Shown here: one piece after another, positions 51,258 through 52,598 of the stretch
Layout: each line of letters opens with the position of its first letter
How positions within the stretch are numbered: the first letter of the stretch is position 1
NCBI RefSeq assembly: GCF_057098645.1
Contig: NZ_CM169472.1
Length of the DNA: 64,000 nt
Direction: 5' to 3' (one strand)
Position numbers and translations under genes: made by a program
Notes under the pieces: generated by a model
What the model saw: the letters and a program-made list of their open reading frames with translations, nothing else
What the model was told of the DNA's origin: nothing
Databases searched by the model: none

Positions 51258-52598
51258 ATGAGCCAGAAAACCCTGTTTACAAAGTCTGCTCTCGCAGTCG
51301 CAGTGGCACTTATCTCCACCCAGGCCTGGTCGGCAGGCTTTCAGTTAAACGAATTTTCTTCCTCTGGCCTGGGCCGGGCTTATTCAGGGGAAGGCGCAAT
51401 TGCCGATGATGCAGGTAACGTCAGCCGTAACCCCGCATTGATTACCATGTTTGACCGCCCGACATTTTCTGCGGGTGCGGTTTATATTGATCCGGATGTA
51501 GATATTTCTGGGCGTTCCGATTTAACGGGCCAGCGTGCTGATGCAGATAATATTGCACCAACTGCGTGGGTGCCTAACCTACATTTCGTAGCACCTATTA
51601 ACGATCAGTTTGGTTGGGGGGCTTCTATTACCTCGAACTATGGTCTGGCCACGGAATTTAATGATAACTACGCTGCTGGAATCTATGGCGGTAAAACCGA
51701 TCTGCAGACGATCAACCTTAACCTTAGCGGAGCCTACCGCCTTAACAATAGCTGGAGTTTTGGTCTTGGTTTTGATGCTGTATACGCTAAGGCAAAAATT
51801 GAGCGTACTGCCGGTTCACTCGGTCCATTGCTTTCCCAACAACTGATAGCGCAAGGCGTGCCACAAAGTTGGACAAACGGCATCAATACACCGGATTCGC
51901 AAATTGCTCATCTCAAGGGTGATGAATGGGGATTCGGCTGGAACGCCGGTATTCTTTATGAACTGGATAAAGATAACCGTTGGGGCCTAACCTATCGTTC
52001 AGAAGTGAAAATTGACTTTGAAGGAGATTACAAAAGCTCCATCAACCCAAATCTGAACAACATTTTGGGTAGCATGGGTTTACCATATGGCACAATGGGT
52101 GCAACCCAAAATGGGTCCTTAACGCTGAATTTACCTGAGATGTGGGAAATTTCTGGCTATAACCGTGTCGCACCACAATGGGCTATCCACTATAGTCTGG
52201 CGTATACCAGTTGGAGTCAATTCCAGGAACTGAAAGCGAAAGGAGACTCTGGTCAAACGCTGTTCTATAAAGACGAAGGTTTCCGGGATGCTTACCGTAT
52301 CGCGTTAGGTACAACCTACTACCACGATAAAAACTGGACCTTCCGTACGGGTATTGCATTCGATGACAGCCCGGTTCCGGCAGATAAACGTTCTATCTCT
52401 ATCCCAGATCAGGATCGTCTGTGGTTAAGTGCAGGTGCGACTTATGCATTTAATGAAGATGCATCCATTGACGTTGGTGCATCTTATATGCACGGTCAGA
52501 ATGTGAAGTTTACTGAAGGTGAAGGGCCAGCAGCATATACCTTTAAATCTGAAGGTAAAGCCTGGCTGTTCGGTACTAACTTTAACTACGCGTTCTGA
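51258..52598 (+). CDS. fadL: Long-chain fatty acid outer membrane transporter FadL
   Basis: [33 protein letters not shown]; ends with NFNYAF beta-barrel signature; 446 aa from 51258. Confidence 0.95.

Follow-up and report, generated by a model that had tools for sequence, protein, structure and literature searches.

The fadL gene analyzed here lies in a 64,000-nucleotide stretch of contig NZ_CM169472.1 (assembly GCF_057098645.1; "the window", positions counted from its first letter). It is very probably an orthologous fadL that carries the second of two deeply diverged E. coli allele families (type 2, next to the K-12 type) and acquired it when homologous recombination replaced the previous allele, the crossovers lying in the conserved ends. 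The frame of the gene is ordinary E. coli DNA, comprising the promoter, signal peptide, hatch, last β-strand and downstream hairpin. The ~1.05-kb interior (51501..52547), which encodes all seven extracellular loops and the intervening strands, very probably stems from a lineage that had diverged from the type of K-12, E. albertii and Salmonella before those genera parted, and its nearest sampled kin are FadL proteins from Leclercia, Lelliottia, and Enterobacter soli. This block very probably entered Escherichia lineages through homologous recombination and still moves among them in this way, and the exact allele would have spread recently among unrelated E. coli, carried by a tract of ~2 kb. 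The outcome would be a wholesale swap of the surface facing phages, antibodies, and other ligands.

The fadL locus and its divergent interior

The product of the intact open reading frame matched the Pfam family PF03349 (OMPP1/FadL/TodX) with 535.7 bits (cut-off 29.7) over profile positions 1-421 of 421. The crystal chain of K-12 FadL, 1T16, aligned with it from end to end (E = 1e-211), and mature FadL begins at Ala26 according to this alignment. An identical gene in O145 RM9872 is annotated as fadL in RefSeq. The gene order around fadL (fadI - yfcZ - fadL - yfdF-like - mlaA - yfdC - tRNA-Arg) equals that of K-12, and a fadL match was obtained in 5425 of 5426 complete E. coli genomes, nearly always as a single match and in all cases on the chromosome. 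Owing to the synteny with K-12 and the one chromosomal copy per genome, the gene is the orthologue of K-12 fadL (b2344), and a paralogue is ruled out. All features discussed below are listed in Table 1.

Table 1 Features of the fadL region in the window. Loop limits follow the predicted (AF2) topology.
Feature	Position	Strand	Description
Haplotype common with ATCC 8739	50574..52795	+	~2.2 kb; one SNP (51038), none in 51039..52795
5' flank	50765..51445	+	upstream regulatory region and first 63 fadL codons; 0 mismatches to K-12 in 681 columns
fadL coding sequence	51258..52598	+	intact ORF, 446 codons plus stop
Signal peptide (aa 1-25)	51258..51332	+	residue 1 of mature chain 1T16 falls on residue 26
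N-terminal hatch domain and start of strand S1 (aa 26-81)	51333..51500	+	protein identical to K-12
Divergent type 2 block (codons 82-430, L1 to L7)	51501..52547	+	67.3% nucleotide and ~72% amino acid identity to K-12
Extracellular loop L1 (aa 88-102)	51519..51563	+	53% identity to K-12; 1-residue insertion
Extracellular loop L2 (aa 133-143)	51654..51686	+	64% identity to K-12
Extracellular loop L3 (aa 185-214)	51810..51899	+	29% identity to K-12; net 7 residues shorter
Extracellular loop L4 (aa 260-283)	52035..52106	+	38% identity to K-12; 2-residue insertion
Rare sub-lineage segment (S8 to S12)	52150..52450	+	DNA 78-89% identical to other type 2 alleles, protein nearly unchanged
Extracellular loop L5 (aa 319-344)	52212..52289	+	69% identity to K-12
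Loop L6 (aa 370-386)	52365..52415	+	88% identity to K-12; directly after invariant Asp369 (K-12 D348)
Extracellular loop L7 (aa 421-426)	52518..52535	+	4-residue insertion, EGEGPAAY versus EGPY in K-12
3' flank	52548..52628	+	last 16 sense codons (most of strand S14), stop and 30 bases beyond; no differences to K-12
Hairpin	52617..52643	+	perfect 12-bp stem, AAAGTCACCTGC-TAT-GCAGGTGACTTT, 3-nt loop; 19 bases past the fadL stop

A preliminary description of the window had suspected a divergent fadL allele whose termini match those of K-12 FadL. The pairwise alignment bore this out, as identity to K-12 FadL was 77% overall and thus not >98% throughout. Identity amounted to 100% at aa 1-66 and 72.7% at aa 67-446, where 27% of the residues are unlike K-12, and residues 1-80 and 431-446 are the same in both proteins. 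The two internal stretches that had been quoted as deviating both fall into the divergent region: the first (22 aa) corresponds to aa 80-101 with loop L1, the second (31 aa) to aa 251-281 with the end of strand S7 and loop L4. The two proteins are alike in their length of 446 aa and are identical in the signal peptide, the hatch, and the last strand. Every one of six E. coli fadL alleles examined, including that of the window, had exactly 446 codons, and the indels between the two types, which are found in L1, L3, L4, and L7 (Table 1), cancel to zero.

On the nucleotide level, the divergence is confined to one block. At its 5' edge, two lone SNPs (51446 and 51491) precede the dense differences to K-12, which begin at 51501, and the 5' crossover is located between 51446 and 51501. 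Upstream of 51501 we counted 10 differences in 943 columns, compared with 349 in the 1068 columns of the block (307 mismatches and 42 gap columns; Fisher p = 4e-94). A comparison with O157:H7 revealed identical junctions. The block differs from K-12 by a pS of 0.73 (dS about 2.8) and a dN of 0.20, giving a dN/dS of 0.07 (Nei-Gojobori), and its synonymous sites are saturated. Recombination, which had been named among the possible causes, is supported by these sharp edges as well as by the trees and the shared haplotype described below. The related proposal of a mosaic loop variation therefore stands with respect to recombination and fails with respect to a patchwork of loops, since a single contiguous block of ~1.05 kb sets the allele apart from K-12.

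The hairpin downstream of fadL is present in K-12, too (detected as an inverted 29-nt self-match). It was not called by the terminator scan because it has no T tail, and a role as 3' end or stability element is probable.

Several further observations concern the neighborhood. The yfdF-like ORF that follows on the same strand (52964..54244, +) encodes 426 aa at a GC content of about 30-35% and had no Pfam match. Relative to K-12 YfdF (352 aa) it contains a 74-residue internal duplication, and its run of TTGATA hexamers (53433..53460) has one 'DI' unit more than that of RM9872. In PBP5 and GN02050 the yfdF-like gene is lacking and mlaA directly follows fadL, indicating that the site just 3' of fadL varies as well. 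Another divergent-allele block, with 77.8% nucleotide identity to K-12 over 5.8 kb, is the yfc chaperone-usher fimbrial operon (40054..45842), about 5 kb upstream of fadL; the adjacent sixA-fadJ-fadI genes are 93-100% identical to K-12. On the other side, at 13220..17225 of the O145 RM9872 locus (about 56477..60482 of the window), tRNA-Arg (argW) is immediately followed by dsdC-dsdX-dsdA. At argW, K-12 harbors the CPS-53 prophage and ATCC 8739 a different integrase island.

Distribution, age, and source of the second allele family

A search with the segment 52150..52450 assigned about 1213 of 5424 complete E. coli genomes (about 22%) to type 2, and the rank positions in a whole-gene search agreed with this number. 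Identity to the segment was at least 99% in 74 genomes, 80-90% in 1139, and <80% in 4211. Whole-gene identities to the window allele were likewise discrete (72 genomes with at least 99%, 217 with ~91%, further ones with ~87.6%, and the K-12 type with ~79.5%), where the band of 80-90% includes K-12-type genomes with partial megablast coverage (e.g. H28-H30). The identity classes of E. coli fadL are separated by empty bands.

The exact window allele (100% identity) was found in O145:H28, ATCC 8739, O78, O157:H16, ETEC and APEC strains, and others; altogether, more than 40 independently finished genomes and a gut metagenome contig contain the identical fadL sequence. Within phylogroup E, O157:H7 is the sister lineage of O145:H28. 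The fadL tree does not follow the strain lineages, as O145:H28 and ATCC 8739 share one allele and O157:H7 has the K-12 type. Outside of the haplotype common to the window and ATCC 8739 (Table 1), the flanks of the two differ by 1-5%. The shared haplotype of ~2 kb marks a recent within-species transfer between unrelated E. coli backgrounds.

Type 2 alleles share 95-98% of their protein sequence, but only 87-91% of their DNA sequence, and are mosaics of one another. The dS values within this type were 0.64 (window and EP91B), 1.13 (window and PBP5), and 0.39 (EP91B and PBP5), with an omega of about 0.03. For the segment 52150..52450, no relative with 90-99% identity was detected in any of the 5424 complete E. 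coli genomes. A protein labeled as Shigella flexneri (P0020; WP_284526954.1, 451 aa), which forms a singleton cluster, combines L1/L2 and L5-L7 of the window type with L3 and L4 of the K-12 type. This hybrid indicates that loop-scale exchange between the two FadL types occurs.

The separation of the two types is older than the split of Escherichia and Salmonella. K-12 and Salmonella fadL differ by a dS of 1.2 and a dN of 0.045, and K-12 and E. albertii fadL by a dS of 0.77. If only strands are considered, dN was 0.098 between the window and K-12, compared with 0.010 between K-12 and Salmonella. Neighbor-joining trees were calculated from aa 81-430 of 43 sequences, which had been obtained by scanning the GTDB species representatives. 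In these trees, the K-12 type grouped with E. albertii and E. whittamii, which both carry this type, and with Citrobacter amalonaticus and Salmonella (100% bootstrap support for strands, loops, or both). The window type formed a clade of its own, also in the strand-only trees (100% bootstrap support), and a single Escherichia FadL clade received 0% support irrespective of whether strands, loops, or both were used. The tree neighbors of the window type were Enterobacter soli, E. wuhouensis, Leclercia sp. 29361, and a MAG, with 83-84% identity; the grouping of type 2 with E. soli, E. wuhouensis, and Leclercia was supported by 100% of the bootstrap replicates based on loops or all columns and by 20% based on strands alone. 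FadL types cross genus lines elsewhere as well (loci L007-L086): Citrobacter is spread over three clades, and Leclercia and Enterobacter are each divided between two. This incongruence suggests that the exchange of FadL types is family-wide.

Among 5.8 billion proteins, type 2 formed a cluster at 90% identity (n = 1574), after which identity dropped to 85% (Leclercia, Lelliottia nimipressuralis, and E. soli). The named members listed for this cluster were all E. coli, except for one partial sequence of 142 aa labeled as Klebsiella pneumoniae. Escherichia sp. MOD1-EC7003 and E1V33 also carry type 2, with an E. coli-like N-terminus and an equal 5' junction. The nearest relatives beyond Escherichia show 83-85% protein identity and are saturated at synonymous sites, and neither the GTDB species representatives nor the 5.8 billion proteins contained anything between 97% and 85% identity. 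The GC3 of the block (0.41) is below that of K-12 (0.50) and also below that of the Leclercia and E. soli group (0.63-0.65), and thus does not fit a direct origin from the latter. Since no donor and only distant, saturated relatives were found, import from outside the genus and a very old polymorphism within Escherichia both fit the data.

A more specific version of this scenario appears possible, although we regard it as rather doubtful. Type 2 might represent an ancient cross-species lineage whose loops remained nearly frozen (omega about 0.03-0.06) despite a full turnover of synonymous sites, and which might be maintained at ~20% in E. coli by negative frequency-dependent selection exerted by FadL-binding phages or host antibodies. 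E. coli might have received it several times from different unsampled enterobacterial hosts, and the segment 52150..52450 (1.4% of genomes, GC3 0.41) might be an independent import from a donor of lower GC content.

It is improbable that the block was recently imported into the O145 lineage directly from a living species outside Escherichia. Such an import would be in line with the clustering of the block with Leclercia, Lelliottia, and E. soli instead of the Escherichia or Salmonella types, with the discrete and rare sub-lineage at 52150..52450 for which no E. coli intermediates are seen, and with an atypically low GC3. However, no protein beyond Escherichia exceeds 85% identity, and about 22% of E. 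coli as well as two other Escherichia species have the type with this 5' junction. A metagenome scan for an exact pattern (a 26-mer of the sub-lineage) yielded only one E. coli contig and one Enterobacter-like contig with 77% identity. As the exact allele is common to many unrelated E. coli, O145 most likely obtained it from another E. coli.

Loops, strands, and selection

The limits of strands and loops were taken from an AF2 model (36 enterobacterial sequences; pLDDT 69.6, which corresponds to medium confidence; pTM 0.71) and not from crystal coordinates. The model contains 14 main strands and had a TM score of 0.85 to 1T16 and of 0.70-0.85 to other FadL structures. The hatch was poorly modeled (pLDDT < 50); its sequence is 100% that of K-12. 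Within the block, strands retain 85% identity to K-12 (30 substitutions and 0 gaps in 199 columns) and loops 50% (52 substitutions in 137 columns, which include all 16 indel columns). Replacements are thus enriched in the predicted extracellular loops compared to the strands (odds ratio 5.6, p = 1.4e-11), as the preliminary description had anticipated, and all indels are located in loops. L3 and L4, where identity to K-12 is lowest, reportedly make up the outer binding groove of the K-12 FadL structure (van den Berg 2004).

The residues of the channel machinery are conserved. In K-12 mature numbering, these are F3, the NPA motif N33-P34-A35, A77, S100, R157, G212, K317, and D348, none of which varies among 43 enterobacterial sequences (ten residues in total), that of the window included, where F28 and N58-P59-A60 correspond to F3 and the NPA motif. 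Most of the ten are named in the PDB titles of FadL mutant structures. The mutant-structure residues for gating or lateral exit, i.e. F3, N33-P34-A35, A77/S100 (S3 kink), G212, and D348, are all among them, and R157 and K317 are the residues that bind the carboxylate. [quoted passage not shown] Considering the unchanged upstream region, the same should apply to the regulation of fadL.

We consider it very unlikely that the loops diverged in place, i.e. that a K-12-like ancestor underwent accelerated loop change under phage or immune pressure. The concentration of replacements and of all indels in the loops would agree with this explanation, and so would the annotation of K-12 FadL as the receptor of phage T2. 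The synonymous sites argue against it. Between the window and K-12, pS within the block reached 0.69 for the strands and 0.81 for the loops, and strands S9-S11, whose protein sequence is 100% that of K-12, still showed a pS of 0.6-0.9. As synonymous sites are saturated even in unchanged strands, the loops did not diverge in place; rather, the whole interior of the gene had a separate history. The razor-sharp block edges with zero differences in the flanks and the separation of the types in trees based on strands alone also speak against divergence in place.

Moreover, the substitution counts gave no sign of positive selection in the loops. The dN/dS was 0.03-0.07 overall (0.07 for the block versus K-12, about 0.03 within type 2). 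Between types, pN in the loops was 0.30-0.32 versus a pS of 0.81 (pN/pS < 1), at a saturated dS. Within type 2, loops had an omega of 0.03-0.06 at a dS of 0.4-1.4 and were constrained like the strands. A dN/dS > 1, which would be expected under diversifying selection in variable regions, was observed neither in the counts between types nor in those within types. Hence, the block is under purifying selection, and the diversifying selection that had been proposed for this gene could not be detected.

There is next to no chance that the allele is an artefact or a non-orthologue: apart from its unusual divergence nothing points to an assembly chimera, a paralogous gene of the FadL family, or a decaying pseudogene, and all three were rejected based on synteny, copy number, the intact ORF with its invariant functional residues, purifying selection, and the recovery of the identical sequence from independently finished genomes and a gut metagenome.

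Relation to known receptor polymorphism and implications

The mosaic evolution of E. coli outer membrane proteins (OMPs) has been described with FadL as the main example (Appl Environ Microbiol 2025;91:e00557-25, PMC12175518). That study distinguished five hypervariable regions (HVRs) in the extracellular loops of FadL, with 4, 2, 2, 3, and 2 types. It reported a FadL tree incongruent with phylogroups, contrasting MG1655 and S88 with ATCC 8739 (placed in lineage A) and ED1a, and found a conserved structure, negative selection overall, and a few positively selected codons. It thus addressed the same gene and the same phenomenon, and one of the strains compared there, ATCC 8739, has an allele with 100% identity to that of the window. 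The L3 sequence of the window (41 aa) is contained verbatim in Data set S1 of PMC12175518 as FadL HVR1_2_0. As is characteristic of mosaic evolution, the variation that we observed is also concentrated in few extracellular segments and falls into a small set of discrete types.

The two-type fadL polymorphism and the loop type of the window have therefore already been published, and the window reveals no new kind of biology. However, PMC12175518 describes the local recombination of individual HVRs, whereas the window differs from K-12 by a single uninterrupted L1-L7 block whose synonymous sites are saturated; neither 'synonymous' nor 'Enterobacter' appears in the main text of that paper. The additions of our analysis are modest. 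First, the unit of exchange is the whole L1-L7 block. Second, it is the K-12 type that is shared with E. albertii and Salmonella, and the other type is nearest to Leclercia, Lelliottia, and E. soli. Third, 74 genomes contain a rare third sub-lineage on the nucleotide level. Fourth, the loops are under purifying selection within a type. The sources of the HVRs were stated to be unknown in PMC12175518, and a history as an ancient lineage with repeated imports would, if true, answer this question.

Mosaic or allelic-type receptor evolution is also known for FhuA, OmpC, OmpF, OmpA, and LamB (as cited in PMC12175518). FadL resembles these proteins in having discrete loop types that recombine within and between species on conserved barrels, and in that the variable regions coincide with phage-binding surfaces. 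Unlike these porins and TonB-dependent transporters, FadL is a lateral-diffusion channel of the FadL/TodX family, and nearly the whole barrel-coding region moves as a unit.

K-12 FadL serves as both long-chain fatty-acid channel and phage T2 receptor, and the window protein is likened to it by its predicted 14-strand barrel. The link to phage reception is established for K-12 FadL only. In the literature, we found no phage-receptor test of a FadL allele of the window type and no paper that compared phage sensitivity or fatty-acid uptake among natural FadL types; a paper on the Gp38 adhesin and one on Stx phages used fadL deletions without natural alleles. It is plausible that both types are kept in E. 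coli by phage- or immunity-driven frequency-dependent selection.

The conservation of the loops within a type points to a few stable, 'serotype-like' forms of FadL rather than to a running arms race. As FadL is a receptor for T2-like phages, the FadL type may affect the host range in phage therapy. FadL loops of Treponema pallidum have been used as vaccine antigens. Hypervariable regions of OMPs have been proposed as antibody targets (PMC12175518). Based on these two precedents, the FadL type may be relevant to antibody targeting as well, also for Shiga-toxin-producing O145:H28 strains.
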